Both the position numbers and the translations under genes were made by a program. Source: Octopus sinensis (Eukaryota). Taken from it: a DNA stretch of 64,000 nucleotides. The notes beneath the pieces were generated by a model. That model was not told where the DNA came from. It saw nothing but the letters and a program-made list of their open reading frames with translations, and searched no databases. Of this stretch, positions 2,901 through 60,087 are shown in pieces. Within the stretch, counting starts at the first letter, position 1, and every line of letters starts with the position of its first letter. Location of the stretch: contig NC_043015.1 of NCBI RefSeq assembly GCF_006345805.1, forward strand, positions 18,910,001-18,974,000. The letters run 5' to 3'.

Positions 2901-3002
2901 TTCCTCTAGAACTCAGCTAGACAAAATGAGTAATGAGTAATTTGAATAATCTCTTCGCTTTAACTGCATGGTGCATAAATGTATCAGGAAGAGAGCCAGG
3001 GG

Positions 3003-4706: not shown

Positions 4707-5277
4707 AAAGTTCCAAAAATTGACTGAAAGAGGGAAAAGCTGCTGGCCCTGATGAAATGCCCACGGAAGTTATCAAGAGGTTGCAATCTGGATGAAACAA
4801 TACTAGAGTTTGCGAATAAGCTCTTGCAGAACCAAGAAACTCCAGATCAGTGGTTTGAGATTAACTCGATACCAATCCCCAAATCAGGAAACCTCAGCAA
4901 TGAAATTGATTACAGAGGAATTGCACTGTCCAATATCTCACTCAAAGTCATCAACCGAATGATCCTCAACAGGATTCAACAGGTGCTTGATAGCCTTATA
5001 AGACCAAATCAGAATGGATTTAGACCAGGAAGAGCCACAACATCTCAGATCTTAGCCCTGGAGCATATAATAGGAGTTAAATCAGGACAGCTATCTGCCA
5101 TTATAACCTTCGTGGACTTCAGTAACTGGTTTGATAGCGCTCATCGTTATAAAATATTGAAGATCCTTCAAGGATATGGCATTCCAGAAGAACAAGTTCT
5201 TGCTATTGCGAAGCCCTACGACAAGACCAGAACTCGTATATTGTCATCAGATGGAGAAATGGAATTCTTTCGGAATA
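4707..5277 (+). mobile_element. RTE-clade LINE, N-terminal RT segment, inverted relative to the adjacent 3' segment
   Basis: ORF 4752-5375: IPIPKSGNLS..DYRGIAL, QNGFRPGRATT, FVDFS, YGIPEE, DGEMEFF. Confidence 0.85.
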
Positions 5278-5784
5278 GCTGTCCCATATATGTTGGAATT
5301 TCGCAAATTTTGTCAGGATTTTCCCTTTTTTGTTCATGTATTACAACACAACGAAGAGAAGTTTTTTTTTTTTAAATAAAAGTTTTAAAAGTCCATGTCT
5401 TTTCAATGTTTGTCTCTCCCCTCACACAAACACATTCATTGTACCTTTGGAACAACTACCACTAAAATGATATACTTTTGTTTTTCGTAATTTTCTGTCA
5501 TTTTATCGTATTCTACATTCTGAAACACTTGTAACTCGCATTAAAGGAAAAAATCTTCCCCTTCTTCCCCACTTCATTGCACTTTTCATGATAAAGGAAA
5601 AGTCAAACACTTCAAGGGAATGTGCGAGAAAAAAAATTTGAATTTTGAAAAGTGTATCTATAAAGCGACATTTTCAGTCGTTTATTTAAACTATCCCTGC
5701 TACCTCGTCAAATACAATTACTTGCAATGGATGAGTTTTGAGATATAAATTTGATAATTTTCCTAAGTTCTAATTCTCGTGCAT

Positions 5785-5841
5785 GAGAGGGACCACCGAA
5801 TTTGAAGTGCCCCGGGCCTCCATGGTTTAAATTCGGTCCTG
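5785..5841. mobile_element. Possible hAT-type MITE end
   Basis: gccccgggcctcc...taaattcggtcctg resembles the ...ccggccctg ends of hAT MITEs; partner end not found. Confidence 0.3.
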
Positions 5842-8800
5842 TATGTACGTGGCTTTTTTGTGCATATTAATTAATGCATCTCTAACTATACATATAACTT
5901 TGTTCACGTTTCATTTCAGTTTGTTTTCTCACACGATTCCTTTCTTCTTCCTTCCTATAAATTATCTTTCAGTGTAATTATGCCTGTATGTACGTTTGCT
6001 TTGTTTCTGCGTGTTCACATATAGACATGACTTTATGCATTCATCTAAATATTATACGATTGTTTCCATTCATTCGATCCACGTCGAAGATGCATACATG
6101 CCTCTATCTGTATTTTATTTGTTTATGCTTGTGAGTCTCACATTATCTATGTACTTAATGTAGTTTTTATTTTGATATCATGCTATTATATTCGTTTGAA
6201 CAATTTATGTCTAAAGTGTAAAAGTGCCTGTACCTATACTTTTTAACCTTTCAATTTTCCACGCCTAAGGTGTACCTATATTTTTATTTTATTTGTTTTG
6301 TTTATGCGCAATAGAGAAGTATGCTGATACATATTCGTACATTTGGGAATATATATATATGAGTATATACACATATAAGTGCATATATATATGTGTGTTT
6401 GTATGTGTGTGTGTGTGTGTGTGTATGTGTGTGTGTGTGTGTGTGTGTGCATGTATTTCGGTCCAGATATATATCTGTGGGCTTATTATTATATGTATTT
6501 ATATATAGGTATATATTTTGTATGCGCACGTCTACATAGTTTCTATCTACGCGCGTGTGTGTGTGTGTAGACCCGTTTACTCATATATATATGTATATAC
6601 ATACAAGTAACTATCAGCTGTCAGCTATATTTTGCATTTTTCTTCTTTCTCTATATCCCCTTCCCTTCTATACCCATAAGAGCTTTTAGTACTTATTTTA
6701 TCTCTCATAAACGATAAACATTCCAATTTTCAAAGCTGGTCTTCTGGATTTGTGACCAGATGATAAACATTAATGAGGATATAATCTAATCAAGCATCTA
6801 CTAAAATTTGGGTCTGCTGATAAGAAGCTGAAACTACATTCATATCTTTTTGCTAAAGTAATTGGCATCTAAGGCATACCATTGATTCTTTACCAACTCC
6901 AATATCCTCTGCCGTTTTTTTTTCTGCTACCCAGGGGTTTTTGAATTCTCTGCAGCGGATATTTTCAACTAAAATGACCGCATGTACCTGACAAGAAAAC
7001 ACACCGGAGAGTTACAGGACATTCGTAATGTTACGTATCCTACAGTCTATGTATTTTGAAACAATTGTAATACTCTTCCTTCCCATTTATTTATAAATGA
7101 AGTTGTACATCGGGATTTTCAGTTTAATCACGATAGAGGCCGAATTACATTTGTTCATGTCACTCTGATTTCACTGTTTTCTTGCATCATTGTTTCAGTT
7201 TACTCTTTTCTTCCGAATTTGCTGGCTAGACAATCTCTTTCTTCAATTAAACTGATAAGGTTACTTCTATTTGCTTTACCGTGAATCAGAATGCATTTAG
7301 ACTATTATATGCACTTTTATTTATTTTAATAATTTAAACTATTTTAACTATTTTCTGGAAAACTGTTTACATTTTATTTTAACATTGTTGAAATCTACCA
7401 GATTTTAAGATACCCATTTGAAGATACGAAGAAGCGAGTTGGATTCATTATAGATTGTTGAAGGCTAAACAGAAACTATATATATATAATAAACTGAAAA
7501 TTGATGAATTGGAAAGTAAACTAATTCAAGGACTCTGAAAAAGTAAAGGACACTGCCATGCCTCTTCTAAATCATGAAACTCCAGTCTTTAGATCATTAT
7601 TCTGGAAGTCCTCAAGTCCTTTAAATAACTAATAGTTTACAGAACATTGCTTTTTAGTACCTAATATTCGAAAACCAGTTTTAGACTAGTGGTAAAGTTT
7701 TAAATATTTAAATAACACATGTTTTATGTTTCCATGGCATAATGTTCCAGTTGTAGTTGATGGAGATAAACTCTCAAAGTTAAATTAGTTTTTAAGAATG
7801 CTGGCAAAATTGTTTACATGGCATAACCTAAAGTCACAGCAAAACGAACAGTGTAATCAATAAAACAAAGTATCTCCAATCAGTAATTAGTGAAACAAGA
7901 TGTACATAGTTATTATTCAAAGAAAGACAGTTAACAACAAGGGCACTAATTTCTAGCCTGTCAGCACCTCATTAAGACAAGGAAATTAGATTACAACTGG
8001 CACCACAAGAACTCTCTTTCTGTTTGTTTCATATTTATTCACTGTCAATTACCGTATGTTTTTATAATTTCTTGATTTTTAGTATTATTTTTGTTAGAGA
8101 ACTTGGAGCAGAAGTCTAAATAATTACAAAACCCATGGAAAGTTATAAATGAAGATAATGACACTAATTTAACCCTCTCAATACTCTAATCAACATTAGT
8201 TGGGCAAGTTTCTGTCTCATCAACTTATTTACAACTAACTTCCCTTATGTCTTTTTTCTAATAAAACACAAAGAGATTCTTACCTACCCCCACCAAAAAA
8301 CAAACAAACAAACCTTTGTATATTATGTTAGATAATAACCCAGCAAAGAATAAGAAGATATTTTTTTATTTATAATTAACAGCATATGAGTCATTTAGGG
8401 CTTATTTTTTATGTATTCAAAACAATCTCTGCATAATTTAGTGAAGGAATCAATTTAATTCGTGTCAAATAAAAGTAAGTTCAATATGACCAATTCTGAG
8501 ATATTTTAGTGTGGTGTATAAATGTGTAAGTTATTTACTAAAAATAAGGCAACTTTGACATACTCTTAATTGTGGCAGCATTGTGATGCTTATTTTCTAC
8601 AATGAAGGCAAAAGGGTTGCATGGGGCAGTGGACACTTGGAAATTAAAAGATAATGACCTCAAAAGATCTTTGATTGGCTTATTGTAGATATTCAGAAGG
8701 TAACAGACTTTGGCTTTAAACCTTTCACTCATTATATCTGTGGAATATACCTTTTGGAAACAATCCATTGAAGCTTTACTCTCAGAGGCCTAATTAAAGC

Positions 8801-9132
8801 CTGATGCGCTAGAGTTCTTTCACTATACAGAGTCTACGTAGAATATTTTGTAGAAGTACAAGAACATACATTTCTGTGAGAGTGGACTGCCAAATGAATC
8901 CCCTGCAACTCTTTATTGATATTTATTTTATAAACCCCAAAAGAATGAAAAGCAAAGTCGACCGGTTTCAATAGGGTTGACACTAACAAAGGAAAAAGTG
9001 GAAATTATATAGTGGAAAAAAATTAATACACCGTCAGACTGATTCTGCTGTTCACTATCATAATAACTATTTTAAAATTAAATACAAGTGGAGATTAGAA
9101 AAACAGTAACTATATAGAAAATTTGTATAGAG

Positions 9133-9171
<39 letters not shown>

Positions 9172-9379
9172 ACATATGTCCTAAAACACACCGTACCCTA
9201 GAAACAATCAGAGAAACACACATATCTCAGAGTGCTTCAAAGTTTCTCACCCCCAGTTGTCGTCTCTGATATATATTTATAGCAGGTGGATTAAGATGTT
9301 CCATAATTGCCAAAATTCAATTATTTTAGAACAACGCTTCTTTCGCAGCCCATACTTTCAAATGATACTCGAAAAGATG

Positions 9380-10740
9380 TTGACAAAGCTATAAGCATTT
9401 CCAGGGTTGGTAAATCAATACCAAGTGTATATCCCAAATATACATAAAGTAAAGGTACCACTTAATGAATTACTAAAAAATGCCAAATGGTTTTGGAGAG
9501 AGAAATGTCAGAAAGCATTTAATGAGTTAAAAGATGTGTTAACTTCTGACTTGTATCTTACACAGTTCGGCCCAAAGTTAGAGATAATACTAGCTACAGA
9601 TGCTAGTGAGTATGGGATAGGAGCCGTGCCCCTACATAAGGATAGCTGGAGAAAGGTCATAGCTCACACATCAAGGACATTATTGCCGACGGAAAAGAGC
9701 TATAGCTAGACTGAAAAAGAGGCGTTGGTTATTATCATATTTGGCATGAATAAGTTCTATAGGTTCATTCACGGCAGACGTTTTTGGTTGCAAACGAACT
9801 ATAGACCTCTAATAACGATATACGGATCCAAGAAAGGAATCCCGAGCCGTACGGCAAACAGACTGCAGCGGTGAGGGTACGATTCTATTAAACTACGATT
9901 ATAGAATGGAATGTCTACCTTCAAAAATGTTGGGGCATTTCCGAGAAATAACGAACCTCTGGAGGACACCATAATAGCAGCGCTAAGAGCGGAATCAGAA
10001 ACAAAAAAAAAGTGATGTGGAACATCGTGCGTGAACTACCAGTAACTTTGGAAGGAATAAAAAGAAATGCGAGAAATGACAAATATATTAATGAGACAAA
10101 AAGAAAACTGTGGTCGACAAAAGAAATAAAGAAAGGTCTGATGTAAAGAACCGCCCAGATGTGATGGTGTACTAATGTACGTTCTAAGGGTAGACATTTC
10201 AGAAGAGAATGCTAAAAGAGTTCCATGTGGGACATCCAGACATCTCTAGAATAAAAGCGTTGATGCAAAGTTTCGAATACTAGCCAAGCATGAACTAAGA
10301 AGTTGAAAACCTAGTAAAATGTTGCAGAGGATGTGTGCTGGCAGCGAAACTACCTACTACAAAATGTGAACCTTAGCCGGAAGTGAAAATACCATGGTTC
10401 TGATTGCATATCGATTTTGTAGGCCCGGTAAATGGATATTATTACTTAGTACTGATCAGCTACATAAAACGGTTTGAGGTCACGCAGTGTAAATGACCAA
10501 CCTCATATACGGAAATAAACTTCTTATGCAAGCTGTTCGCAAGTTTTGTTGCACCGGATATAATTGTTTCTGATAACAGAACACAGTTTGTATCCTGTGA
10601 GTTTAAAAGATTCTGCGAAATGTTCACGTTAGGACATAAAATATTGCACCGTATTATCCTAGATTGAATGGGAGGGCAGAACGGCTCGTGTACACTTTTA
10701 AGAGAGCTTTAAGGAAACTTAATAAGGAAGCCACGTACAA
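9380..10740 (+). mobile_element. Ty3/gypsy pol remnant (RT connection, RNase H, integrase)
   Basis: ILATDASEYGIGAV, TEKSYS, LHIDFVGP, PDIIVSDNRTQF, NGRAERLVYTFKRAL; many stops. Confidence 0.9.
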
Positions 10741-16659: not shown

Positions 16660-18280
16660 TTCAGTAGTTTTATTTTTATAACGTGCTATCACTTCTCTAC
16701 CGAGCGCAGCTCTGTGTGCCTTGGGTATGTGTTGTGATTTGTTGTGATGCTCTGATGGTTACTGTATGGAAAGTGTTCTGCGTAGGAATTGTGCAGTGCC
16801 GAGTAGTGCAATTTTCTGTATGTTATATGTGTTTGTAAGTCCTGGTGTTTTTGTTATGTGTTTGTCTGAATATTTTTTTATCATGCCTAATGCACCTACT
16901 ATGATAAGAATTGTTTCTGTTTTTAGATTCCACATTCTGGTTACCTCTATTTCCAGGTCTTTGTATTTTGAAAGTTTCTCCATTTCTTTTAGAAATGTCA
17001 TCAATTAGAAAGCATTTTTTTTCTTCATGATCTCTGACAACTATATCTGGTCTGTTGGCCTTAATTTCTCTGTGTGTATTGGCATATCCCAGAGTATGGT
17101 TGCTTTCTCGTTTTCTGTGACCTTTTCTGGTGTGTGCCTATACCATCTTTTTTCTGCTGTTATTCCAGTGTTGGCATAGCTTCCAGTGTATGTAGGTCCC
17201 AACTCTGTCGTGTCTGTGAATATATTCCTTCTTAGCCAGGACTGGGCAGCCAGAGATAATATGATTTATTGTTTCTTGTCCATCTCCACATATTCTGCAG
17301 TTACTTGTTATATTTCTTTTCATTACATGTTTTTGGTAATTTCTGGTGGGGAGGCTTTGGTCTTGTGCTGCAATTAAAAATCCCTCTGTTTCTGCTTTGA
17401 GTCCTGAGCTTCTCAACCATTGCTGGGATTTTTCTTTGTCTATTTCTTTTGCGTTTAGTTTAGTCCAGTACTTGCCATGAAGGGACTTTTCTTGCCATCG
17501 TTTTATCATGGTCCGTTGCTGTTCTAGTTTTAGTTTTGATTTCATTTGCTTTATAGCTTTTGTTGTGTGTTCTTCTTCTTCTTCTTCTTCTTCTTCTTCT
17601 TCTTCTTCTTCTTCTTCTTCTTCTTCTTCTTCTTCTTCTTCTTCTTCTTCTTCTTCTTCATATTTGTTAGGTGTTATGATTTCTTGTTTGTATTTGTCAA
17701 CTTCCTTAAAAACTGAGAACAATTTTTTGTTTTGCTCGTGTTTTGCCGCTATTTGCATCAGTTTTCGTTGCTTCTGAAGTAGGTATTTTTGCAGTGCTAT
17801 GGTGGTTATTTTATAGCAGTTTTCCAGCTTTATAAGGCATCTACCACCTTCTATACGTTGTATATATATCCTTTCTATGTTAGATTTTGGGCGATGCGTC
17901 CTAGATTCTGTCATTATTTTTCTTGTTTTCCTATCTATTTTGGTCAGTTCATGTAGCGTCCAGTTAAGGATATTGTAGCTGTAACTTATAACTGGGACGG
18001 CTAAAGTGCTAATACCTATTATCTTATTTTTAGCATTGAGCTCTGTTTTCAGTATTGATCTAACTCGTCTATAGTATTCTTTCTTTATTTTCTCTTTCAT
18101 TTGTGTGTGTTGTGTCTTATCTAGTTCATGGATTCCTAAATATTTGTAAGTTTGGCTTTGGACTTATTCTCTTATTTCATTGGCTTTATCTAGTGTGATG
18201 TTGCTACTCTTAACTAGTTTTCCTCTTTTCAGGGTTACTTTGGCGCATTTTTCTAATCCAAATTTCATATCTATTTCTTT
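16660..18280 (-). mobile_element. 5'-truncated R4/Dong-type LINE with restriction-like endonuclease (RLE)
   Basis: ETEGFLIAAQDQSL, CCHC knuckle CRICG..ETINHIISGC, RHDRV, RPDIV, KYKDL, QKIALLGTA; (TAA)n at the 3' end. Confidence 0.9.
17570..17659. repeat. (TTC)n expansion inside the LINE ORF (poly-Glu)
   Basis: About 30 GAA codons in frame in ORF 17138-18100. Confidence 0.95.
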
Positions 18281-19506: not shown

Positions 19507-22500
19507 GCCTTTGCACAACTTCTAGCGCTGGAGATGTACTACAGTGTCAGCTGTTCACTACCAGTGAACTAAGGTAGCACCTCTTATTTTTCGAGCACCT
19601 TCCGGAGTATTCGAGCGGTTCCAAGCAGTGCTGTTTTCTGCAAGTGCTCCACTCTTATTGCAGCTCCTATTTGTTCCACGTACTTCTCGAGATTTTCCCA
19701 CTGTTCCCAGAGCTTCGACAATTATTGGTAATACTGCTACCTTTCATCGACCACAACTGCTTAACTTCCCAAGCTAACCTGTCATATCTCGCAACTTTTC
19801 TTTCTTCCTTATCGCATACCGTGTTGTCTGCTGGGCATGCTATATCTATGATCCAGCATAATTTGTTTTCTTTCTCAATTAACACTACGTCTGGCTTCCT
19901 ATTCTCTATCCCATGGTCGCACTGAATTATAAAATCCCATAGGATATTTGCATTTCTATTTTCGACGATGCCTTTAGGTTTGTGGTCGTACCAATTTTTT
20001 GCTCTGTCAAGTCCATACTTGTTGCAAACTGTCCAATGGACAAGCCTGGCTATAGTGTCGTAGCGTCTCTTATATTTCCTCTGGGCTGGTGGCATACATT
20101 GGCTGGTAATATGCCATACGGTTTCACTGTTTTGTCCACAGATTCTGCACTTATCACTTTCTGCTGTGTTGTCTATTTTATATTTTATGTAGTTTGTTCT
20201 TAGGGTTTGTTCTTGGGCAGCACAGATTAGGGCGTCCGTTTCCGGTTTTAAATCACTTTTAGTCATACACATCCATCTTTTTTCTCTGTCTGTCTTATCT
20301 TCAGCATCCCTATGAAATTGACCATACAGTCTTTTCTTTACTCACCTATTTTCAGTTTCATTCATTCTCAAGTGCTTGTGCACTGTTTTATCTTTGCAAT
20401 CTTTCATCCTACACAAGCCAGACCTTCTTACTGCTAATAACAGCGGTTCTGCAGCATTTTTTACATACCATGATATGTTGTTTTCTTCTACTCTAATGCA
20501 GTGTTCGCATCCAACAAGTCCTCTTCCCCCTCTTTTTCTTGGTACATACAGTCTATCTGTGTCACTTTTTGGGTGGAGTGACCCATATCTAGTTAGCAAC
20601 TTCCTTGTCTTTCTGTCTAAGCTGTTTAGTTTGTCTATTGTCCATGCGATTACCCCTACTCCATATCTAATGAGTGAAACCGCCCAGGTGTTGATAGCTT
20701 CGAATTCATTCAGTCCGTTTAATTTCGACTTAAGGATCCGTGTCAGTCTGCGCAAGTACTCCACCTTAAATTTTCTGTCATCTCTTTCTCCATCAATTTA
20801 TCCATTTCCAAAATTCCCAAGTACTTATATATGTTTCATAACCTCCCCCGACGGTATCGTTCACCCGTTCATACATTCGATTTTGCCTCTCTTCAAGACA
20901 AACACACCACACCTTCTCAGTCCGAACTCCATTCTGATATCAGCACTGAAGGATACACCGTATCAATGAGGGAACTGACTTGGGCTTCATCTTTACCATA
21001 AAGTTTGAGGTCATCCATGAATAACAAATGGTTGACTTTTTGTCGGCGGCTTTTGAATACGCACCCAGCTTTTGCTTTCTTCTAAATCAGTGCTAGTGGT
21101 ATCAAACATAGTACAAAGATCAGTGGAGACAGGTAGTCCCCTTGGAAGATGTCCTTTCTAATTTCTACTGTCCCTAAACTTCCGTATACCATCAGGTCCG
21201 TCCTTCAGTTCGCCATACTTTTTCCAAGCAATCGCTCAACATTCGATGCAATGCCAAATATGTTCATACACTCCATAATCCAAGAGTGTGGGATCATATC
21301 GTACGCCTTACGATAGTCGATCCATGACATGGCTAAGTTACTTTTCCTCCTATTGCAATCTCTGAGTACAGTTTTGTCTATCAGGAGTTGATCCTTGGTA
21401 CCCCTGCATTTGCCCTTGCAACCCTTCTGCTCATGTGGCAGGACTCCATTTCTTTTTCAGATGTTCGTACATTGACTCTGCGAGTATTCTAGTCAATAAC
21501 TTCCACATAAGTGGCAAACAGGATATCGGCCCGTAATTGTCTACCATATTGCCTTTCTTTTTCGATGTTTTTCAGGCACAGCACTGTCCTCCCCAATGTC
21601 AACCACTTTGGTGTTATTTGGTGGGCATTTAACAAGGTGTTGAGTTGCGCAGCTATTCGGGCATGGCATTCACCAAATCTTTTGATCCAGTAGCCTTGAA
21701 CTCCATCTGGTCTCGGGGCCTTCCAGTTGCTAATTTTTTTGCTGATTTCCTTCACTTCTCTAACTGAAATGACTAGTTCTGCCTGTTTTGGACAAGCTAC
21801 TGTTTGTTTCAGTTCTTGCAACTATTCAGCATCCTTCTTGTGCTCCTTGTCTTTGCTTCAGATGTCACTCCAAAACCTTTGATTTTCAATGTTATCTGAT
21901 ATCAACTTTTCATTTATACACTCTCCATTTATTTCTTTATAGAATCTCTTCTAATTTACTCTGAATAACCTATTCTGGTGGTAACCCTTCATTCTTTGGT
22001 CGTATCTTACCATCTTTGCTTTCTTTGCAACGAAGCGCTGTTTCAATCCCTCCACTATTACTTTCTTTCAATATTATACTTCTTTTTCAGTACCCTGTAT
22101 TTTTGTTCGCTTTTTAGCTCCCCTTTCTCTTTTCGGTCTAACACAGAGATTTCCTTCGAGAGCATGTCTAACCCTGCATAGATTCTTCTTTTCCACCATG
22201 GATCTTTTCTTTTGTCACTCCCATTATGTTTCTTTTTCTTGACATCAACACTCACATTTTCTGCTACAACAATACTTGCTGTCTTGATCAAATTATTTGT
22301 TTCTGTGATGTTGTTTGTTCTGATGTATTTCAGAATTTCATTGACATTTTTTTGTTTCTTGGTTCAATTTCCATCGATCAACCTTTTCAAGGTTGCAAAT
22401 AATGTGGCTGTCGTTCTCCTGTAGTCTTAACTTTATTTGTCTTAACATTTGTTTATCCGTTATGTCGCTTTTAGTTTTATTGTCTTCTTTTAGATCATCT

Positions 22501-24888: not shown

Positions 24889-25547
24889 AACAACAACAAG
24901 AGCACTCAGAAAACAAAAACTTCCACCAAGGCAACACAAACGTCCTCTCAACGATTAGTGGTAGATGATTTTTAAATTTAAAACATCTGAAATAAACTCG
25001 ACTGCTCTCACAAACGAGAATACTAAAAATAAACACGACCACTCTCAAAAATTAAGTAAAAACCGGGAAAATAATCCAGAATCCTTGTCCGGCACCTGAT
25101 CTATCCCAATGGCAGTCATGGAATGGGAAGGTGGGTGTGCGTGCCGTGTTTGTAATGTTGTGTGCGTGTGTGCAGTGGGAACAGGGATAATTTTCGGTAA
25201 ATTTCTATCCTTTATTCGCACGATTTTCACTAAGAAAAAAAAAAGCTGGGATATTTTGCTTGGAATCAAGGTTTCTCTATGAGATTTTTTGCGTGGAATC
25301 GGGTTTCACTATGAAGGTTCTTTTTAGTCTATTCACTGATATAGTGTCTTTATGACCATTAAGGTCTATAGTGAGCAATTTATCAGTGCATGAAAGAAAA
25401 CGGAAAGGAGCTGCATACGCTGCTGTTAACGGAGGTTTAACAACATCGTTACGTACAAAAAGCGTGAGACCAAGAAGTAAAACTTCTGTAGTGGTTATAT
25501 ATAGCCAGTACCAGGAGTTGTTGTGGCTGCGTGTATATTAGTATATA

Positions 25548-26763
25548 CGAGGGGCGTTCAATAAGTAATGCCCCTGACCCACTTCCCATAGCACTAGAGC
25601 AACGAAACTTGGCACAGTTATTAGTCTTTTTCTACATAGGAACCACCCAGAGTTACGCATTTCTCCCATCGTTTGATGCAGCTCTGGAGACCGTTTTTGT
25701 AGAAGAACCCAGCTTGGTCCTCCAACCACAACGTGACTTCAGAAATCAAGGCTGCATTATCTGGGAAACGCTTTCCTTTCAAAAACAACTTCATGATTCG
25801 GAAGAGGTGAAAATCAGAGGGTGCAAGGTCAGGAGAGTAGGGGGATGGGGGAGGAGTTCATAGCCATACGCCTGTGCTTCTGATCTGGCGACAAGCGAGT
25901 TGTGGACCGGAGCGTTGTCCTGCAGGAGGAGGATGACTTTGCTGATCTTGCCCCGCCTCTTGATTTTGATAACTTCTCTTAATTTCCTCAAAAGTGAAGC
26001 ATAATAGGCTCCTGCAATTGTGGTACCTTTTGCCAGGAAATCTGTCATCACTACTCCGTCCTGGTCCCAGAAGACTGTGAGCATGACCTTGCCAGCGGAG
26101 GGCTGCACCCTTGCTTTTTTTGGAGGGGGTGAGTCACGGTGCTTCCACTGCATTGACTGGGCTTTGGTCTCTGGATCATCGTGATGGACCCAGGTTTCAT
26201 CCTGTATAATCAGTCTTTTGAAAAATTTTGACTCATCTTCTTGGCACATCTCCAAATTCACCCTCGAGCACTCGTCGCGTTCTTGCTTCTGGAAAGGCGT
26301 GAGCAACCTGGGAATCCATCTGGCAGACACCTTTCGCATATGCAAATAGTCATGAATCATAGTTTCCACAGACCCGGTACTAATCTTGACCTCATGGGCT
26401 ATTTGGTGAATAATTATGCGTCGATCTTCCAAAATGGCAGCCTCAACTTGACGGACAGATGCCTCCTCAATGGCAGAAGGGGGCGACCAGATCTGGGAGC
26501 TGTTTCCACAGAGTTCCGACCATGTTTGAATTCACGATGCCAGCGTTTTACAAGGTCATATGATGGGGCATCATCACCATAAGTAACAGGCTCCATTTCA
26601 CACTTGACTCGGTTGAAACACCTGTAAATCAGAAACCACAATTAATTCAGAGCTGTAATTTGCCACTTACTCTATAGAGATATAAATTATTGCACATGCA
26701 AAATTTCAGCTAGATCAAACAACTGCAAGTGGGTCAGAGGCATTACTTATTGAACGTCCCTCG
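25548..26763 (-). mobile_element. Mariner (DD34D-type) copy 1, defective
   Basis: TIRs cgaggggcgttcaataagtaatgcc, TA duplication, QDETWVHH, QDNAPVH. Confidence 0.95.
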
Positions 26764-26859
26764 TAGATATGAAGAATAAGTTCAAGAATTATATATTTAC
26801 TACATAAAAATATATTTTATTTACTGGTCGATGATGATACATAATCAAAATGTAGAATC

Positions 26860-27135: not shown

Positions 27136-28760
27136 ATTGAGAGGTTTTTCTTGCCATTTATCAGTCAGAATATCTAAGGCAGCAGTTTTAGCACGGGTTT
27201 TCATGCTCTTAGATTTTTCTGTGCTTGTTTCTTGTATGTCTAATTCCGAAATTTGTTGTATTCGGAATTCACTTAGATATTCCTTTGCCTGTTTTGTTAC
27301 TGAGTATGATGCTTTCTTGTTTTCATGTTCTGAGACAAGTTTTAACATCCAGTCCTCAGAGTTTTTCAGGTAGGTGTCTAGGCAAATTGTGGCAATCTTC
27401 ATTGTTAATGCCAGTTGTAAAAGTCCACGGCCTCCCTCTTTACTTGGCAGATAAAGTCGTTCTATATCTGCCTTAGTATGGTACATTCTATGGATTGTCA
27501 ACAGTTTTCGTATTTTTCTGTCAAGATGACATATTTTAGTAATTGACCAGTTAATGATGTTGAAAATGTAAGTCACGACTGGTATGTCTAAAGCATCAGA
27601 TCTGTCTTGAGTTTTGCTCTTACTCTGCGATAACACTCTCTCCTGATCCTTTCCTTCATTACTGAATGCCTTATTCCATTCCCTTCAATTACCCCTAGGT
27701 ATTTGTAGCTCTGCGCTAGGTCTAACTCTTTTATGACATTCTACTGGTCAAGGTTAATGTTAGACGTTTCTGTCACTTTTCCTTTGATAAAGGTAGCTTT
27801 TGCACATTTATCGAGGCCAAATTACATTCTGATGTCATCACTGAATTGTTTAACAATCGCTAGTAATCCCTTGAGTTCTTGGTCATTTTTTACAAAGAGC
27901 TTTAAATCATCCATGTAAATTAGATGATTTATATTTTTATCAAACCTTTTATATCCGTATTGTGCATCATTGAGCAATTTTGAGAGAGGTATTAAGGCTA
28001 AACGAAAGATGAGTGGTGATAGTGAGTAACCCTGGAAAATGCCACATGAAATTTTTACATCTCCAGCATTTAGAGATTCATTTTCACTGTTCAAAGTTAG
28101 TGTGGTTCTCCATGATCTCATACTTACAGACAAAAAGTTTCGCAGAGTAGGCGCTATTTTATACATTTCCAGGCATTTCTTAATCCAGCTATGTGGTAGG
28201 CTATCAAAAGCTTTTTTATAGTCTATCCAGGCTATTGACAAGTTTTTGTGTCGTTTGTGACAATCTTCTAAGATCATCTTATTGATGAGTAGTTGATCTT
28301 TACAACTGTAGGATCCACGTTTACATCCTTTCTGTTCATTAGGGAATATGCTGCTGTCTGTTAAATAACTATAGATATATTCCGTCAGGACAGATGTTAG
28401 CGTTTTATACATAGTTGTTAAGCAGGTTATGGGTCTATAGTTTTTTTGGTTCATTTGTTTCTTTACTTTTTGGAAGCAGGAATGTAAGACCATTAACTAG
28501 CCAAGAGGGCATTATACTAGGGTGTTGCAAAACAGCGTTGTAAAATTCTGTTAGCAGTTCATGGCTCTCTGGGAAGGCATTCAACCAGAAGTTTGGAATT
28601 TTATCCTTTCCTGGATACTTCTATTTGCTTGACCTCCTGAGAGGAGATCTTCTACCTTGGCACCCTTCCACTTTTGCTCCTCTAAGGAGTCCAAGTCTGT
28701 AGACATTCTATCAATCCAAGGGGCGTTTCCATTGTGTGTTTTTTGTGTGTTTTTTCGTTG
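27136..28760 (-). mobile_element. R4/Dong-type LINE RT fragment
   Basis: NYRPITCL, EQKGC, AWIDYKKAFDSLPH, GIFQG, HLIYMDDLKL, LYLPSKEGGRGL. Confidence 0.9.
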
Positions 28761-37260: not shown

Positions 37261-37424
37261 CTTCATTTCATTTTACTATATATACTATTTATACTATATA
37301 TTCTATATTCTACATTAATATTAAAAAGAATATAAATAAAACATAAAAAACAGACATAGTTGAAATTCCTTTGAATGATATATATCCCTCTATACACAAT
37401 CATACAAACCTCTTTATATATATA

Positions 37425-39162: not shown

Positions 39163-39298
39163 AATATATATATACAATTATAAACCAAGAGAGAAGGTGG
39201 AAATAAGATTAATAAAAATTATTAATACATTGATAAGCGCAACAGTTGTTTCAATTCATCGCTTCAATTCATCACTTAAATCAATCAAATTTAAGTTA

Positions 39299-40574
39299 CG
39301 AGGGGCGTTCAATAAGTAATGCCCCTGACCCACTTCCCATAGCAGTAGAGCAACGAAACTTGGCACAGTTATTAGTCTTTTTCTACATAGGAACCACCCA
39401 GAGTTACGCATTTCTCCCATCGTTCGATGCGGCTCTGGAGACCGTTTTTGTAGAAGAACCCAGCTTGGTCCTCCAACCTCAACGTGACTTCAGAAATCAA
39501 GGCTGCATCATCTGGGAAACGCTTTCCTTTCAAAAACAACTTCATGATTGGAAAGAGGTAAAAATCAGAGGGTGCAAGGTCAGGAAAGTATGGGGAGGAG
39601 TTCATAGCCATACGCCTGTGCTTCTGATCTGGCGACAAGCGAGTTGTGGACCGGAGCGTTGTCCTGCAGGAGGAGGATGCCTTTGCTGATCTTGCCCCGC
39701 CTCTTGATTTTGATAACTTCTCTTAATTTCCTCAAAAGTGAAGCATAATAGGCTCCTGCAATTGTGGTACCCTTTGCCAGGAAATCTGTCATCACTACTC
39801 CGTCCTGGTCCCAGAAGACTGTGAGCATGACCTTGCCAGCGGAGGGCTGCACCCTTGCCTTCTTTGGAGGGGGTGAGTCACGGTGCTTCCACTGCATTGA
39901 CTGGGTTTTGGTCTCTGGATCATCGGGATGGACGCAGGTTTCATCCTGTGTAATCAGTCTTTTGAAAAATTTTGACTCATCTTCTTGGCACATCTCCAAA
40001 TTCACCCTCGAGCACTCGACGCGTTCTTGCTTCTGGAAAGGCGTGAGCAACCTGGGAATCCATCTGGCAGACACCTTTCGCATATGCAAATAGTCATGAA
40101 TCATAGTTTCCACAGACCCGGTACTAATCTTGATCTCATGGGCTATTTGGCGAATAATTATGCGTCGATCTTCCAAAATGGCAGCCTCAACTTGACGGAC
40201 AGATGCCTCCTCAATGGCAGAAGGGGGCGACCAGATCTGGGAGCTGTTTCCACAGAGTTCCGACCATGTTTGAATTCACGATGCCAGCGTTTTACAAGGT
40301 CATATGATGGGGCATCATCACCATAAGTTACTTTCATTTCATCAAAAGTCTCCCGTGGTGTGCGTCCTTTCAAATACAAAAACCGGATCACTGCTCGACA
40401 CTCAACAGGCTCCATTTCACACTTGACTCGGTTGAAACACTTGTAAATCAGAAACCACAATTAATTCAGAGCTGTAATTTGCCACTTACTCTATAGAGAT
40501 ATAAATGATTGTACATGCAACTAGATCAAACAACTGCAAGTGGGTCAGAGGCATTACTTATTGAACGTCCCTCG
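39299..40574 (-). mobile_element. Mariner copy 2, full length but frameshifted
   Basis: Both TIRs and TA duplication; CRAVIRFLYLKG, QDET, QDNAPVH, SPYFPDLAPSDFYLF. Confidence 0.95.
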
Positions 40575-40608
40575 TAAATTAATTAAATCAATTTGGTTAA
40601 TTATTATA

Positions 40609-40645
40609 GGCGTAGGAGTGGCTGTGTGGTAAGTAGCTTGCTTAC
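40609..40645 (+). mobile_element. SINE tRNA-like head, interrupted after ...gtagcttgcttac
   Basis: ggcgtaggagtggctgtgtggtaagtagcttgcttac matches the SINE head at 45566-45530 (minus strand). Confidence 0.85.
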
Positions 40646-41478
40646 TTCCGGTTACCCAGAATTTCTTGAAGGGAAGAAAGCGGGCAACGATAGTTGCCCG
40701 CCGAAGGAACCTAAGGCTTCGGGAGGCGGGGAGAGTCTCCGGACAAAGCGGAAGCGCTCCACTTTCCCGAAGTCAGGAAGAAAAAAAAAGAACGGGTCGT
40801 CTCAGCGGGGAGATGATGTGCCGTCCGCATGTCCCGAAGTTGTGTCACCCACGGTGGAAGAAACAACCCCACCCTTAAAGATGATCAATTAATTATCTTT
40901 TTATATAAGAGCGGGGAGGTGGAAAAAATAGTAGAACAACATAAGGAGACTGTAGATATGCCCTTCACACGGGATCCCGAATGGCCTCCGCAGATAGCTG
41001 TGGAGGTCATAAGGCTTAAAGGATTAAAGGCTGAAAGGATTTGGGGAGGAGTGTCGCATATGGCCGGGTGGCCCTTACACGACTTACATGTCCTACATGA
41101 GTGAGGCATGGGAAATGGCGGAATACAGGAACTCAAGCGGCATTGAATATAATGATGAATATATCGATGGATATATCGAAGAGTAGGGTTTGAAATCTCA
41201 TCTTATTGTATTATTTGTAGTGGTTTATAACTTCAATTGTGTGTTTAAAAAAATGTTAAGTAAGAGGTTTTAGTGCCTCCTTCTTGTAAGAGGTTTGAAA
41301 CCTCATAGTGACTTTTTAAAAAAAGAAAATATGTTTTCGAGAAAAATCCAATCGGCGGGTGTTAGGTTTCATCTCTCATTTATTCATTCTATTTCATTTT
41401 CATTCATTGATGTGTTTGTCCAGCCCGCAAAGCTACACACTCTTTGTACTGTCTATGATGACAATTTTATGAAATAAA
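40646..41478 (+). mobile_element. Putative Tx1/L1-type element 1 (truncated or deleted)
   Basis: Basic, proline-rich ORF1-like stretch; 3' end ttttatgaaataaa shared with element 2; flanked by the target motif. Confidence 0.55.
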
Positions 41479-41491
41479 GTAGTTTGCTTAC

Positions 41492-43623
41492 GGTGAGTCA
41501 AAAGTTTTGTTGCACGTGGATATTTTTTCTATTGTTGAATGTTTATTGTTGAATATTCTCGTGAACTTTGAAAATTTTTGCGCTTTTTCCCGGTGACGGG
41601 AGAAAGTAATTGTTGAAATATTGAATTATTAATATTGAACTTATTAATATTATTAATATTGAACTTGTTAAAGCCGTTGTAGGCTTTATTGTCGTGCCTT
41701 CCCCCGCGGGAGTGGCATTTGAACTGTTATCCTCATTAAGGGGAAAAAATATTATAGGCTTCCTGTTTTTGGGATAAGCAAATTATTGTGGAAAAAATTA
41801 AATTTTAGCCATTGTAGGCTCCATTGTGGCGTCCGCCCGTAGCGCGGGTGAGATTTGAACTGCTGTTCTCGTTGTGAGGAAAAAATATAGGTTTCCCTTT
41901 TTTGGGGGATTCTACATTTCATTATGGTGTGGAAAAATTAATTTCGGACGTTGTAGACTTTGTTGCTACGTCTCGCCCCCAAGCGGGGGTAGAATTGGAA
42001 CTTTGGACAGCTGTAATACAAATTGATTATTTTTGTCCTCTGCAAGAGGAAAACCTTTTCTATAGGTTTCCCAGTTTTGTGGGAATCCAATTTCTCCTAT
42101 ACTTATTTCAACCATGTCGGTTGAAATCATTCGTGAAAAATGTGCTCTTGTAGAGAGCAATGTTGATGTTGGCAATTGCGCCAACACTGAAAAAGTTTTC
42201 GGTGGTTGCCGCAGTAGCAACCGAAAATATTGATATCTCGGCAGATATATTGCGGGGATATTTTAAAAGGATGAAGGAAGATGGGGGTGATGTTGTGAAA
42301 TCACCCTCCTCCACTGTGTTAGAAACAGAGAAACGGACTGTAGTGTATAAAATCGTCTGCCCTTAAGACAGAAGGTTTAAACACTTCGAAAAAAATAATC
42401 GAAAAGTGCCTGTCCCCGATATGGAAGGATATAGTGTATATCTCGAGGGGACATATGGTTATGTTGCGGTCCAATTCTCAAACGAAGAGATGGCCCGTGG
42501 GCATTCCGTGTGTCCCTTGGAGTCCAAAGAAGTAGTACTTCTGCTAACTTATATAGGACGAAGAACGTCCCGTGTAAGAATCAATGAAGTGCCACCTGAA
42601 GTGGACCCGACAGAGCGCTTTACAAGTGGCTTTCCTCCTTTCGACAAAAAGCGGAAAAGGATTCTCTCCAACTTCTTCAGCCACAAATCGGGGCAAGGCA
42701 CCACGGTATGAACATCTGCACCACCTCCGCCCTCCCTAGCAGGGATAACGCCCGTCCAGACCAGGTCTGGGTTAGAGCGGTCACCCTGCCGGCCACCTCA
42801 CTCCAATTTTTCTCTATCTGGAGGTCTGAACCAATCCAGACTCCGAGCAGCTTAACAGGCCACCAGACAGGAAGTCAAGGTTGGTCAACCTGTTCCGGAG
42901 AACGTGCGGGCCGAGGTATCTGGATAATTACCAGAAATCCCTGGCCTGGCAGTGTATTCGTGCGGCGTTACCTGTTCGCGACAAGCTGTCAAGGCATGGA
43001 AGTGCCGTCTCGGCGACATGTCCGCGATGTAAGCGGGATAGTGAAACCGTCTTGCACGCATTCGTAGAGTGCCCGGAGTTATCGGGACTGATTGCTTTTG
43101 CCGAACAACTGTTGTCAGTGAGTGGAAGAGTACAGCTATCAGCGGAGTCTATCATTGAGATTGTGCCACCTCCTTTCCTCAGCAGGGAAAGGAAGGCTTG
43201 TTTTTCCTGCGTAGTAGCCATACTGAAAGAAATAGCATGGAAGATGCGTACGAAAGGTATAGTAACAGGTACCTTTATATCCGGCCAGGCGTTGGTTAAC
43301 TTTTTTAGTTACCACCTCGGTAGTAAGATCAGGCTGGAAAAGAGGTGTCTGTCACGAGATATGTTTGTGAAAAGATGGAAGCCTGTAGCTTGCAAGCTGG
43401 GTATATTTGGCACCAGGTAAGTGTGGCTGAATCAAGAAGTAATGGTTCTACTCAGGTGGCTGGGTTCTATGTAACATTAAATTTGTAAACTTTATATTGT
43501 AAATACTGTGCCCATTATATTGTAAATACTAAAACGTTTTAAGCTACTTCACCCTAAATGTTTGTATGCCCTTGTATGTCCCCTCTATGTAACGCCTTAA
43601 TGGTGAATTTTCATGAAATAAAA
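41492..43623 (+). mobile_element. Tx1/L1-clade LINE element 2 with internal deletion
   Basis: 5' UTR tandem monomers, ORF1-like fragments 42160-42600, ORF2 C-terminus YQKSLAWQCIRAALPV..CPRC..ETVLHAFVECP, 3' end ttcatgaaataaaa. Confidence 0.85.
41672..42090 (+). repeat. Three tandem monomers of about 135-140 bp in the LINE 5' UTR
   Basis: Units start at 41672, 41807 and 41946 (ttgtagRct..gaact..gRRRaaa..tatagg). Confidence 0.75.
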
Positions 43624-43928
43624 TAGCCTGCTTACAGGTTGCTTCTGCGCATGTGCAAGTCAGTGTTGTGTTTGACACCGAAGATGTAAGACGTGGTTTT
43701 GAAAGCCGTCTTAAATTGAAGACTTTTGGTAAGAAATTCTAATGCCAAATATGCCGAAAAATTGGACATATTGTCCATTAACCATATAATTTTTTCACAA
43801 TTAGAAATTTTTTCCTTTGCCCTCATTTATGAATTGTTTATAAATTTAACCTTTTAAGGTATTTTTTAATATGCTGGCCATTGATAAAATTTTTTTCGAA
43901 AAAATATTTTTTTCGAGAGAAATTTTAT

Positions 43929-44028
43929 NNNNNNNNNNNNNNNNNNNNNNNNNNNNNNNNNNNNNNNNNNNNNNNNNNNNNNNNNNNNNNNNNNNNNNNN
44001 NNNNNNNNNNNNNNNNNNNNNNNNNNNN
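43929..44028. other. Assembly gap (100 N)
   Basis: N run. Confidence 1.
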
Positions 44029-44477
44029 TTTCCTATTTATTATTCTACCTTTACGGTGCTTTATTTCGCTGGAAAATAACGCTATTGTATTGAAAATAAT
44101 ACTTCTGTATTGTAATAATATTTATAATTTTTATATAAAACTCTTTCATTGATCTCGGTTCTGTTTATAGCTGGTGCTATTGGCCGAGTATATAGGCATT
44201 GATGTTGCGGATATTTTAAATTTATTCATCCGGTAGACCTAGTCATTGAAGACCAATCAGTATTACGATAACAAAGGTATTCTGAAAAGTCCGAAACTCA
44301 AGTACTAGCTTGTCCATTTCTCTGGCGTTCTTCCTAGAAGTAAGATGCAATTTTTTTTATGTTCGCCGCCTGCACACATCTTTGCCTCTATATATTCAGT
44401 AAAGCTTTACCTAGCGCATCGGACGGTTACAGACTGCTATTTCTAGCACAAATTGCTACCTTGTTGTGCCACTATTT

Positions 44478-44513
<36 letters not shown>

Positions 44514-44519
<6 letters not shown>

Positions 44520-45131
44520 AAAAATTTAAAGGACTGACCACTAAAAGTGGACGGTCAACATGCTAGATATAGACGTCAAAATCGCTATTTTCCACGAAGA
44601 ATGTGTTGTCAAATAAAACTCAGCACAAACCAAAGCGTAAAAATAAGCAAGACAAATGAAAATATACGAAATAATAACGATTACCTATGTACCGATCAGT
44701 TTCGCTTGTTAATATCCACGCATATGGATACGTGGAAATCTGCAAGCTCCGGTCAAGCGTTTTTGCATCTAGTCCTGGAAATTGTATTTGTATACGACAG
44801 ACTATGCTGATGAGCTTGCAAATTTCCACGTATCCATATGCGTGGATATTAACAAGCGAAACTGATCGGTACATAGGTAATTGTTATTATTTCGTATATT
44901 TTCATTTGTCTTGCTTATTTTTACGCTTTGGTTTGTGCTGAGTTTTATTTGACAACACATTCGTCGTGGAAAATAACGATTTTGGCGTCTATATCTAGCA
45001 TGTTGACCGTCCACTTTTAGTGGTCAGTCCGTTAAATTTTGTATGTAAAGATATTTTAATCTTCGGATTTTTTTAATATGCTAGGCCACTGGTTTTAATT
45101 GATTAATATCAATTTTTACCCTTATTCAATT
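44514..45131 (+). mobile_element. Penelope-like pseudo-LTR with about 235 bp fold-back, in (TA)n
   Basis: Arms 44514-44748 / 44812-45047, hammerhead at 44802-44876, (TA)n on both sides. Confidence 0.8.
44802..44876 (+). ncRNA. Type I hammerhead ribozyme
   Basis: ctatg-CTGATGA-gcttg...caagc-GAAA-ctgatcgg-TA-catag; all stems pair, canonical core. Confidence 0.88.
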
Positions 45132-45160
45132 ATATATATATATATATATATATACTCTCT

Positions 45161-45566
45161 CTCTTTTACTCTTTTACTTGTATCAGTCATTTGACTGCGG
45201 CCATGCTGGAGTACCGCCTTTAGTCGAGCAAATCGACCCCGGGACTTATTCTTTGTAAGCCCAGTACTTATTCTATCGGTCTCTTTTGCCGAACCGCTTG
45301 GTGGCGGGACGTAAACACACCAGCATCGGTTGTCAAGCAATGCTAGGGGGACAAACACAGGCACACAAAAATATACACACACACTTATTATATAACATAT
45401 ATATGACAGGCTTCTTTCAGTATCCGTCTACCAAATCCACTCACAAGGCATTGGTCGGCCCGGGGCTATAGCAGAAGACACTTGTGCCCAAGATGCCACG
45501 CAGTGGACTGAACCCGGACCATGTGGTTGGTTAGCAAGCTACTTACCACACAGCCACTCCTGCGCC
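45161..45566 (-). mobile_element. Full-length tRNA-head SINE
   Basis: A and B boxes (tggctgtgtggt; gggttcagtcc), core region and aaacaagtaaaaga-type tail. Confidence 0.9.
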
Positions 45567-45581
45567 TATATATATATATAC

Positions 45582-45612
<31 letters not shown>

Positions 45613-45618
45613 TAATAT

Positions 45619-45649
<31 letters not shown>

Positions 45650-45872
45650 GTATGTATTATATAGTATGTATATATATATTGTATGTATATATATATATGT
45701 GTGTGTATATATATATGTATGTATATATATATGCTGTATATATATGTATGTATATATATATGGTGTGTATATATATATGTATGTATATATATATGTATGT
45801 ATATATATATGTATATATATATATGTATGTATATATATATATATATATACATACATATATATATATATATAT
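45567..45872. repeat. Degenerate (TA)n/(TATG) tract
   Basis: Visible. Confidence 0.95.
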
Positions 45873-46264
45873 AAACATTATAAATTCGTTCTTCACTCGT
45901 TTAATATTGTTCTTATTTTCTTATTTTATCTTATGTCCATTGTGTAAAAATCCCTCATCACACATCTGTGATCTTTTCAGCGACTCCTCTTCCATCCCAC
46001 ATGTTTCCTCCTGTTCTGGATCATTCATATATTATGTACATTGAGTTTCATGCAGATAAGGAATTAATTGGTTTAAACAAGACTTGCAAACAAGGATCAT
46101 AACAGTAATTTTAAATAGTCACAAATCTGTAAAAGACACTGCATCAAATATATAGAGATTGATAGTAACAGGTCAGGCAGAAGCATAAACACACACTTAC
46201 ACACATACATATATAACTGTGTGTATGTGTGTGCATGCGCGTGTATGTATATATATATATGTAT

Positions 46265-46344: not shown

Positions 46345-47988
46345 GAGAATTTATTAATCATGACAACTGTTTCGACACATCTAGCATCGATCCCTCATGG
46401 GAGGGACACTCAACAACTGGTTCAGGAGTCTCTATCTGGCGGTGCAGAAGTATCTCATCGGGTGATAAATACGAGGGACGTTCAATAAGTAATGCCTCTG
46501 ACCCACTTGCAGTTGTTTGATCTAGCTGAAATTGTGCATGTGTAATCATTTATATCTCTATAGAGTAAGTGGCAAATTACAGCTCTGAATTAATTGTGGT
46601 TTCTGATTTACAGGTGTTTCAACCGAGTCAAGTGTGAAATGGAGCCTGTTACTTATGGTGATGATGCCCCATCATATGACCTTGTAAAACGCTGGCATCG
46701 TGAATTCAAACATGGTCGGAACTCTGTGGAAACAGCTCCCAGATCTGGTCGCCCCCTTCTGCCATTGAGGAGGCATCTGTCCGTCAAGTTGAGGCTGCCA
46801 TTTTGGAAGATCGACGCATAATTATTCGCCAAATAGCCCATCAGGTCAAGATTAGTACCGGGTCTGTGGAAACTATCATTCATGACCATTTGCATATGCA
46901 AAAGGTGTCTGCCAGATGGATTCCGAGGTTGCTCACGCCTTTCCAGAAGCAAGAACGCGTCGAGTGCTCGAGGGTGAATTTGGAGATGTGCCAATAAGAT
47001 GAGTCAAAATTTTTCAAAAGACTGATTACACAGGATGAAACCTGGGTCCATCACGATGATCCAGAGATCAAAAGCCAGTCAATGCAGTGGAAGCACCGTG
47101 ATTCACCCCCTCCAAAGAAGGCAAGGGTGCAGCCCTCCGCTGGCAAGGTCATGCTCACAGTCTTCTGGGACCAGGACGGAGTAGTGATGACAGATTTCCT
47201 GGCAAAGGGTACCACAATTGCAGGAGCCTATTATGCTTCACTTTTGAGGAAATTAAGAGAAGTTATCAAAATCAAGAGGCGGGGCAAGATCAGCAAAGGC
47301 ATCCTCCTCCTGCAGGACAACGCTCCGGTCCACAACTCGCTTGTCGCCAGATCAGAAGCACAGGCGTATGGTTATGAACTCCTCCCCATCCCCCCTACTT
47401 TCCGACCTTGCACCCTCTGATTTTCACCACTTCCCAGGCATGAAGTTGTTTTTGAAAGGAAAGCGTTTCCAGATGATGCAGCCTTGATTCTGAAGTCACG
47501 TTGAGGTTGGAGGACCAAGCTGGGTTCTCTACAAAAACGGTCTCCAGAGCAGCGCATCAAACAATGGGAGAAATGCGTAACTCTGGGTGGTTGCTATGTA
47601 GAAAAAGACTAAAACTATGCCAAGTTTCGTTGCTCTACTGCTATGGGAAGTGGGTCAGGGGCATTACTTATTCAACGCCCCTCGTAGATACAACTCGTTA
47701 ATACTTTTCTCGTTGAATTGCTTGTTCGTTTCTCTTTTTTTTTTCCATCTGTGATTTTTATCTTTGATCTTCTATATAAATGAAGATATTTTCTGCGTCT
47801 GGCTGTTTTTCTTTCTACAAAACGAGAAGTTACATTGCAGAATTGTTATTTTAACGAGTTGTATTTATTTACCACCCGACGAGACACATCTGCACCGCCA
47901 GATACTCCTGAACCAGTTGATGAATGTCCCATCCATGAGGGATCGATCGTAGATATGTCGAAACAATTATCTTGATTAATAAATTCTC
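46345..47988. repeat. Fold-back inverted repeat with hammerhead-like motif; left arm split by mariner copy 3
   Basis: 46345-46471 plus 47687-47701 is the reverse complement of 47851-47988. Confidence 0.8.
46472..47684 (+). mobile_element. Mariner copy 3, defective
   Basis: TIRs and TA duplication; same sequence family as copies 1 and 2. Confidence 0.95.
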
Positions 47989-59519: not shown

Positions 59520-60087
59520 CAAGGAAAAATTGTAAAAAGGCAGAATGCTAAATTGAAAGAAAATTTTAATGAAAATGGGCGTATGAAAAAAGTTTTTGAA
59601 AAATTGATAAAATATATATATATTAATTCAAACCGGTTTTCGTCATAATGTGACTTTTCAAGAATTGTAAAGAAAAAAAAATTTTAAGTGAGGAGGAGGA
59701 AAAAAGAAAATTACATTGTTTTTTGCAAAAAAATAATAATAAATATATACAAAAATTAAAAAATAGGTACTCCGATACATTGTAAAGTCTTTGTGTATCT
59801 TGAGTTTAATGATTGTTCACGAAAAAATTACCTTGAAGTATTGAGATCCAATGGGATTAAATCCATGTGTTGTTTAATTTAATTAAGGGTGTCTCTTAAG
59901 TGGAACTGGACTACTATTACTGCTTCCTGTTTTACCATCCACTTAAGAGACACCCTTAATTAAATTAAACAACACATGGATTTAATCCCATTGGATCTCA
60001 ATACTTCAAGGTAATTTTTTCGTGAACAATCATTAAACTCAAGATACACGAAGAATTTACATTATGCTTTTTTACAATTTTTCCTTG

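Follow-up and report, generated by a model that had tools for sequence, protein, structure and literature searches.

A local stack of retroposons around a repeated target motif in the head of a short interspersed element of Octopus sinensis

Introduction

Tx1 families of retrotransposons are found within other mobile elements, including the piggyBac-type Tx1D, Mariner-N4_AMi, long terminal repeat (LTR) elements and Harbinger, and in the same account a family without LTRs is regarded as target-specific when the target is present in more than 20% of its flanks (PMC4494074). For Mariner-N4_AMi the preference has been counted genome-wide (313 of 347), and tandem insertions of SINEU-3 sandwich a target-site duplication (TSD) inside this transposon (PMC4494074). 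Here we describe a related arrangement in Octopus sinensis, in which at least two, and possibly three, retroposons, termed elements 1 to 3, stand around copies of a short motif at which the 5' head of a short interspersed element (SINE) is broken. The window, that is, the whole stretch of DNA that was analysed, comprises 64 kb of contig NC_043015.1 (positions 18,910,001 to 18,974,000, forward strand); the array spans window positions 40605-43928, to which all coordinates below refer, and is followed by an assembly gap (43929-44028).

The octopus locus resembles the crocodilian Tx1-Mar and SINEU-3 system in its L1-group machinery, in an apparent preference for one site in an abundant transposon and in tandems that sandwich a TSD (16 nt in crocodilians), as well as in the use of the same target by a probable non-autonomous passenger. 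It differs in that the crocodilian target is a mariner DNA transposon, whereas here it is a SINE head between the A and B boxes, and in that the crocodilian preference was counted genome-wide, whereas the octopus evidence comes from one locus. The use of a mobile element as a landing site is likewise common to Tx1L in Tx1D of Xenopus laevis, to Tx1-8_Crp and Tx1-4_AMi, which occupy LTR elements, and to Tx1-9_AMi, which occupies Harbinger (PMC4494074). These, however, belong to different target classes, and the endonuclease specificity of Tx1L has been tested biochemically, whereas that of the octopus elements is predicted from sequence. Keno, which inserts in U2 snRNA genes, and Kibi and Koshi, which insert in microsatellites, are similar in that they rely on an apurinic/apyrimidinic-type endonuclease (APE) and on multicopy targets (PMC4494074). 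Unlike the SINE considered here, the targets of these three are host genes or simple repeats. Dewa and Mutsu are further APE-type target-specific elements in multicopy sequences other than SINEs. A SINE head as the target of a Tx1 or L1 family was not found in print in a search that left Repbase and most subscription papers outside its reach. Since transposon-in-transposon targeting with tandem stacking has already been published, the gain offered by this locus is a new target and host and not a new mechanism.

Data and scope

Evidence from other copies was taken from contigs of two public runs, X1 and X14, which carry two organism labels and each cover 30 of 30 bins; the records inspected are 22 loose ends from a total of 1,098 and 16 pieces from a total of 10,388. 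Summed contig depth is used throughout as a rough signal of abundance, and is no copy number. Two raw-read runs, X15 and X16, placed 60 and 18 reads, respectively, covered 3 of 30 bins and were uninformative. These four runs were taken from 24 that were listed, those with small shares being set aside. The SINE promoter boxes were scored against the A-box and B-box consensus. The FastTree tree was built from 151 sequences of the reverse transcriptase (RT) region, 14 near-identical cluster members having been dropped from the 165 proteins with this region, and contains no named Tx1 reference.

A repeated motif at the break of the SINE and at the element ends

The features on which the arrangement depends are as follows.

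40605-40645, plus strand: 5' head of the SINE, broken at 40645; 39 of 41 letters agree with the intact copy at 45570-45395 (minus strand) and 33 of 41 with an older copy at 37421
40619-40629, plus strand: A-box-like stretch, by box consensus
40631-40645, plus strand: target motif copy 1, native to the SINE, 0 mismatches
41477-41491, plus strand: target motif copy 2, putative TSD, 1 mismatch; its first two A are in common with AATAAA
43621-43635, plus strand: target motif copy 3, putative TSD, 2 mismatches
43929-44028, no strand: assembly gap of 100 N, in which the SINE remainder may lie, unless it is lost
45395-45570, minus strand: intact copy of the same SINE, by sequence match to 40605-40645, serving as empty-site reference

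An earlier reading of this DNA, made from the sequence alone, had proposed that the SINE head breaks after AGTAGCTTGCTTAC (40632-40645), and this holds, as the match to the intact copy stops after 40645. The same reading had the motif recur directly behind the 3' ends of two elements, as is indeed the case: letter for letter, the downstream copies are AGTAGTTTGCTTAC (41478-41491) and TAGCCTGCTTAC (43624-43635). When the 15-mer at 40631-40645 is sought with up to 2 mismatches, the window yields 4 matches against 0.17 expected (0 of 100 shuffles reach 4), the fourth being the intact SINE copy, with 1 mismatch. On both strands together ATGAAATAAA occurs twice in the window, both times with the motif directly after it, for which the per-site chance is 5.6e-8 and 1.2e-6. 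Because the motif opens with two A that also belong to the end of AATAAA, the duplicated unit amounts to 13 to 15 bp. The position and orientation of the motif between tandem copies are the same at both of the two element ends that the window offers and in two contigs from the public runs. This placement, far past chance and ending where the SINE breaks, argues for insertions stacked upon one another at a single target.

The local stack around the repeated target is thus real and well supported. As to its origin, we regard site-specific insertion with target duplication, repeated at one position of the SINE head, as the reasonably probable explanation. A fusion of SINE RNA to the 5' end of element 1 was rejected, as it leaves the downstream motif copies unexplained. 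It is also conceivable that an insertion fell by chance into an abundant SINE and was followed by local re-use, recombination or mis-assembly by the gap. Genomes of this kind are very rich in SINEs (11.6% in Octopus vulgaris; PMC13282606), the array adjoins a gap, element 2 is rearranged and no listed contig spans a junction of the array locus itself. However, each of the three motif copies is followed by a sequence of its own, and the sequences ahead of copies 2 and 3 differ from each other, a pattern that neither unequal recombination nor a collapsed assembly would produce; the motif also ends other copies in X1 and X14 contigs. We consider this course of events improbable.

The 3' regions of elements 1 and 2 are alike in their last 17 nt alone. 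A score equal to that of their 3'-region comparison is reached by 48 of 1000 shuffles with this tail and by 998 of 1000 without it, and two copies of the 17-nt tail itself are present in the window (0 of 100 shuffles). That the motif stands at both element ends, though the 3' regions are otherwise unrelated, again favours stacked insertion. The same observation could, in principle, be turned around: tail and motif form one continuous block of about 30 nt shared by two otherwise unrelated elements, such that the motif might be the elements' own RNA end, either a conserved terminus or read-through target, and not a fresh duplication. Mismatches to the local SINE copy would then be expected, and an X14 contig match ending at 41491 fits too. 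Yet this leaves unexplained why the SINE is broken precisely at the motif's right edge, and how a second head-to-tail junction came about in X1, unless targeting is also present, and we hold an origin of the motif in the elements themselves to be distinctly unlikely, if a little less so than a chance insertion with local re-use.

The SINE head as target

The SINE is interspersed, with 4 copies within the window, and an A box with at most 1 mismatch from the consensus is present in all four. The copy at 45570 also has a B box where one is expected, again with at most 1 mismatch; in two older copies the top-scoring B-box site is elsewhere. The break lies 16 nt past the A-box-like stretch and, as measured in the intact copy, about 17 nt ahead of the B-box-like stretch, in agreement with the landing site between the two boxes that had been suggested earlier. 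The target fits an interspersed short repeat with A and B boxes, and the geometry of the break implies that the A box would be split from the B box.

Among the targets of Tx1 and other non-LTR families are tRNA, U2, U5 and 5S genes (PMC4494074, PMC4640811), and within tRNA genes the anticodon region and the A box are where Dada transposons are concentrated (PMC8869645). The primary target could instead be a multicopy RNA gene, such as the SINE's parent tRNA or similar, with the SINE head hit by resemblance. A TSD always copies the local target, and hence cannot name the primary one. On the other hand, two SINE copies searched in Rfam up to E 10 gave no tRNA match, although decay can mask one, and ARAGORN placed no tRNA anywhere in the window, so that the SINE head appears far from any tRNA; over 40400-46000 Rfam returned just low-complexity matches, under gathering scores. 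In addition, summed depths, on the same rough reading, suggest hundreds of copies, many for one tRNA isotype. On balance an RNA gene as primary target is unlikely, though we would place it somewhat above an origin of the motif in the elements' own RNA end.

Structure of elements 1 and 2

The two elements that carry the shared tail are composed as follows.

40646-41476, plus strand: element 1, an abundant repeat with short broken frames, an AT-rich 3' region and the shared tail (X1 depth, tail match)
41492-42608, plus strand: 5' part of element 2, a UTR-like region and then a broken frame from 42115 (repeats; X1 depth 721-10,520)
41665-42100, plus strand: three diverged repeats of about 135-155 bp each (sequence comparison in the window)
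42609-42859, minus strand: inverted piece of open reading frame 2 (ORF2), downstream of the RT core (tblastn, residues 720-811 of protein P0009)
42872-43420, plus strand: forward ORF2 C-terminus with zinc finger (zf-RVT; Pfam PF13966, E 1.9e-9)
43421-43620, plus strand: 3' untranslated region (UTR) of element 2, with the shared tail as its last part (tail match)

The proposal of a tandem array of long interspersed elements (LINEs) is borne out for element 2, which has ORF2 homology and whose Pfam match agrees with the CCHC C-terminal region read there previously; it does not extend to element 1, in which no ORF2 was detected, nor is element 2 collinear. No match to element 1 was obtained among 165, and then 212, ORF2-type proteins or in Pfam, and no ORF2 is apparent directly upstream of its 3' UTR. 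Since its likeness to element 2 is confined to the tail, element 1 is better read as a partner, probably truncated or non-autonomous. HAL1 (half-L1) elements, which possess ORF1 only, offer a possible model, in that element 1, too, would be a coding-like repeat with a LINE tail and without ORF2. In contrast to HAL1, ORF1 homology was sought in element 1 and none was found.

In element 2 the frame from 42115 may, by its position, be taken as a putative ORF1; its predicted fold (pLDDT 31) is not usable. The inverted piece is 67% and 73% identical to P0009 (tblastn, E 2.7e-25), lacks 8 residues and is frameshifted at 42707, and the forward piece is 53-58% identical to the ORF2 relatives retained for the window, 6 longer proteins out of 1,212 candidates. 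As the forward piece begins near residue 927 of P0009, about 113 codons are absent between the two pieces, and the APE and RT core are deleted at the locus. Element 2 as one collinear, 5'-truncated LINE is thereby ruled out by the minus-strand ORF2 at 42609-42859. In X14 a loose end at 42880, and in X1 one at 42707, read, when translated by eye, as the missing stretch, such that ORF2 is collinear in other copies.

Twin priming gives rise to 5'-inverted L1 insertions (PMC2837659), and the inverted upstream piece, the forward 3' piece and the internal deletion of element 2 occur in the order expected of such an event. Unlike in twin-primed L1, the inverted piece follows 1.1 kb of forward 5' sequence and not a TSD, and a target deletion or a later rearrangement would consequently be needed.

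Summed depths in X1 are 20,786-112,794 over 40626-41402 in element 1; in element 2 they are 721-10,520 over 41514-42623 and 25,255-90,155 over 42624-43400, the depths of the eight single pieces listed being 41.5-66.2. These values suggest abundant families with rarer 5' ends.

A possible third element and an abundant repeat beside the gap

43636-43735, plus strand: about 100 bp that may be the 5' end of a further, related element (X1 depth 6,328; short shared motif)
43736-43928, no strand: a different, very abundant AT-rich repeat with hairpin-like rearrangements, running into the gap (X1 depth)

A third element had been expected to start at 43636 and run into the gap; of this, the first 100 bp or so stand as a possible related 5' end, and the rest is a different abundant repeat. 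The summed X1 depth is 6,328 over 43623-43733 and then 346,961 and 619,712 over 43734-43928, X14 behaving likewise, and X1 has opposite-strand joints at 43736-43808. The depth jump, together with these joints, indicates that from about 43736 another, far more abundant repeat is present, and an element 3 continuing as a single unit up to the gap is ruled out by the jump in both runs. A short gapped motif at 43679-43694 is shared with the 31 extra letters ahead of the 41491 region in an X1 contig (a single window match, 0 of 100 shuffles, for a pattern picked after both sequences had been viewed), and on this ground 43636-43735 is perhaps a related 5' end. When the 5' starts of elements 1, 2 and 3 were compared within the window, no similarity was apparent (668-928 of 1000 shuffles score equally).

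The repeat contains a palindrome at 43884-43928, and hairpin-like variants of it are seen in its other copies. Further along, a foldback at 44507-45054 consists of two 243-nt arms, 96% complementary and 62 nt apart, in the flank of which (45069-45091) a 22-nt stretch is in common with the repeat; a second foldback, with 124-nt arms, lies at 59781-60061.

Copies in other data

In X1 a contig of depth 40.1 carries an element-2-type 3' end and the motif to 43634, followed by 31 other letters, and then joins 41491; as its sequence reads, this is another case of head meeting tail around the motif, and the 5' end is longer than that at the locus. X14 record 12 holds a copy of element 1, diverged by 16 letters and 9 gaps and aligned from 41318 to exactly 41491, past which 27 further letters are unaligned. 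Both contigs lend small, independent support to stacked insertion at one site with target duplication.

Related DNA in public genome, metagenome and viral contigs was sought, and none was confirmed. The SINE-head pattern had 0 matches in genome and viral contigs, and the 10 metagenome loci with the junction pattern were taken as chance, as they have no likeness to the window beyond the 23-nt pattern.

Relatives of the element 2 protein

The protein that would have moved element 2 belongs to the L1 group and is probably of the Tx1 type. P0009 (1,111 aa) combines the domains Exo_endo_phos, RVT_1 and zf-RVT, and the two window pieces are 56-73% identical to it; the L1-group plan of an ORF2 with APE at its N-terminus, RT, and a CCHC zinc finger at its C-terminus is thus found as zf-RVT in the window and, for the rest, by way of P0009. 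In the PDB the best match of P0009 is human L1 ORF2p (E 1.2e-50, residues 38-829), with R2 proteins at 4e-22 or weaker, so that among the clades with solved structures, which are those such a comparison reaches, P0009 is nearest to L1. On these sequence grounds the relatives of the element 2 ORF2 are APE-RT-zinc-finger proteins of the L1 group. In the tree P0009 joins P0001, P0015 and the Argonauta hians protein P0188 with a support of 1.0, and then four more proteins, again with 1.0; nodes below this group of 8 have a support of at most 0.5. The window C-terminal piece joins the P0009 group at 87/84, not starred and on a long branch. The closest named relatives are octopod. Published accounts record tRNA genes as targets of other elements, and L1-Tx1 in coleoids (PMC4640811, PMC3747384, PMC8869645, PMC8967140). 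In Octopus vulgaris 421 insertions belong to 13 L1-Tx1 families with recent activity, a discussion of whose insertion targets is absent from the consulted portion of that report (PMC13282606).

A relative in the limpet Patella caerulea, P0025, is 30% identical to P0009. The locus tags of its 11 cluster members run from SNE40_003393 to 003415, on equal-length records, and suggest a tandem array of a related element; the fish cluster P0126 looks similar. P0006/P0016, a close animal-type ORF2 relative, is deposited as Herbaspirillum sp. and is probably host DNA in a metagenome bin.

Other decayed non-LTR fragments in the window, consisting of RT and zinc-finger pieces of 23-44% identity, lie at 27843-28445 (minus), 4881-5183 (plus), 17234-17359 (minus) and 20096-20170 (minus). 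Three near-identical copies of a transposon (97-98% in the listed pairs), presumably mariner-like to judge by its protein motifs, with terminal inverted repeats and broken transposase frames, are found at 39291-40582 (minus), 46470-47689 (plus) and 25543-26768 (minus); one of them ends about 25 nt before the SINE head.

A proposed mechanism for stacking and its difficulties

Starting from the arrangement and the ORF2 homology as observed, we infer the following nick positions and order of events. Bottom-strand nicking by the endonuclease would take place at the left edge of the motif (13-15 bp), and the RNA end, which has AATAAA and no long poly-A, would prime by means of the two A that it has in common with the target. 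A nick of the top strand at the right edge would then duplicate the motif. Each insertion would leave a motif copy with one native flank, available for re-use, and in this way a head-to-tail stack could be built up by at least two insertions and possibly a third. Element 1 might be recognised by the same machinery through the shared 17-nt tail, and the inversion and deletion in element 2 could stem from twin priming or from a later rearrangement.

Several observations weigh against this account. Relative to copy 1, the downstream motif copies carry 1 and 2 mismatches over 15 positions. None of the window's three intact SINE copies holds an insertion, and the evidence is that of one locus. The SINE remainder was sought on the plus strand past the array and not found in the window, which leaves the outer TSD pair unclosed. 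Among the listed loose ends and pieces only the X1 joint shows letters beyond an element end. Element 1 is without a protein match by Pfam, sequence search, Atlas, pairwise comparison and folding, and the 5' part of element 2 is in the same position: its frame at 42115-42608 matched nothing in Pfam, two sequence searches, Atlas, 212 relatives and 11 ORF1-like stretches (best Atlas scores 0.83 for the element 1 frames and 0.82 for this frame, under the useful range). Finally, membership of the Tx1 clade is putative, the tree having no named Tx1 family. Stacked, target-duplicating insertion is nonetheless the simplest account of the locus, and the site-specific lineage proposed earlier is upheld to this extent, with the small support of the two contigs.

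Implications

Beyond the locus itself, a wider and more tentative picture may be drawn, to which we would assign a low probability. In this picture an octopod lineage of several L1/Tx1-group families, among them a coding partner that lacks ORF2 and has only the 17-nt tail in common, would have specialised on the promoter of the dominant SINE of the host and would have inserted there in hundreds of copies, an APE domain reading 13-15 bp specific to the SINE. The abundance of the SINE would provide a harmless target, and each insertion would silence a competing retroposon. Should a genome-wide preference be true, a tRNA-like SINE head would join the targets of APE-type site-specific retrotransposons, and the family would provide a natural endonuclease with a defined 13-15-bp target for the study of shifts in APE specificity and for targeted insertion. 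It would also make it possible to test directly whether a retroposon is held in check by another that splits its RNA polymerase III promoter.

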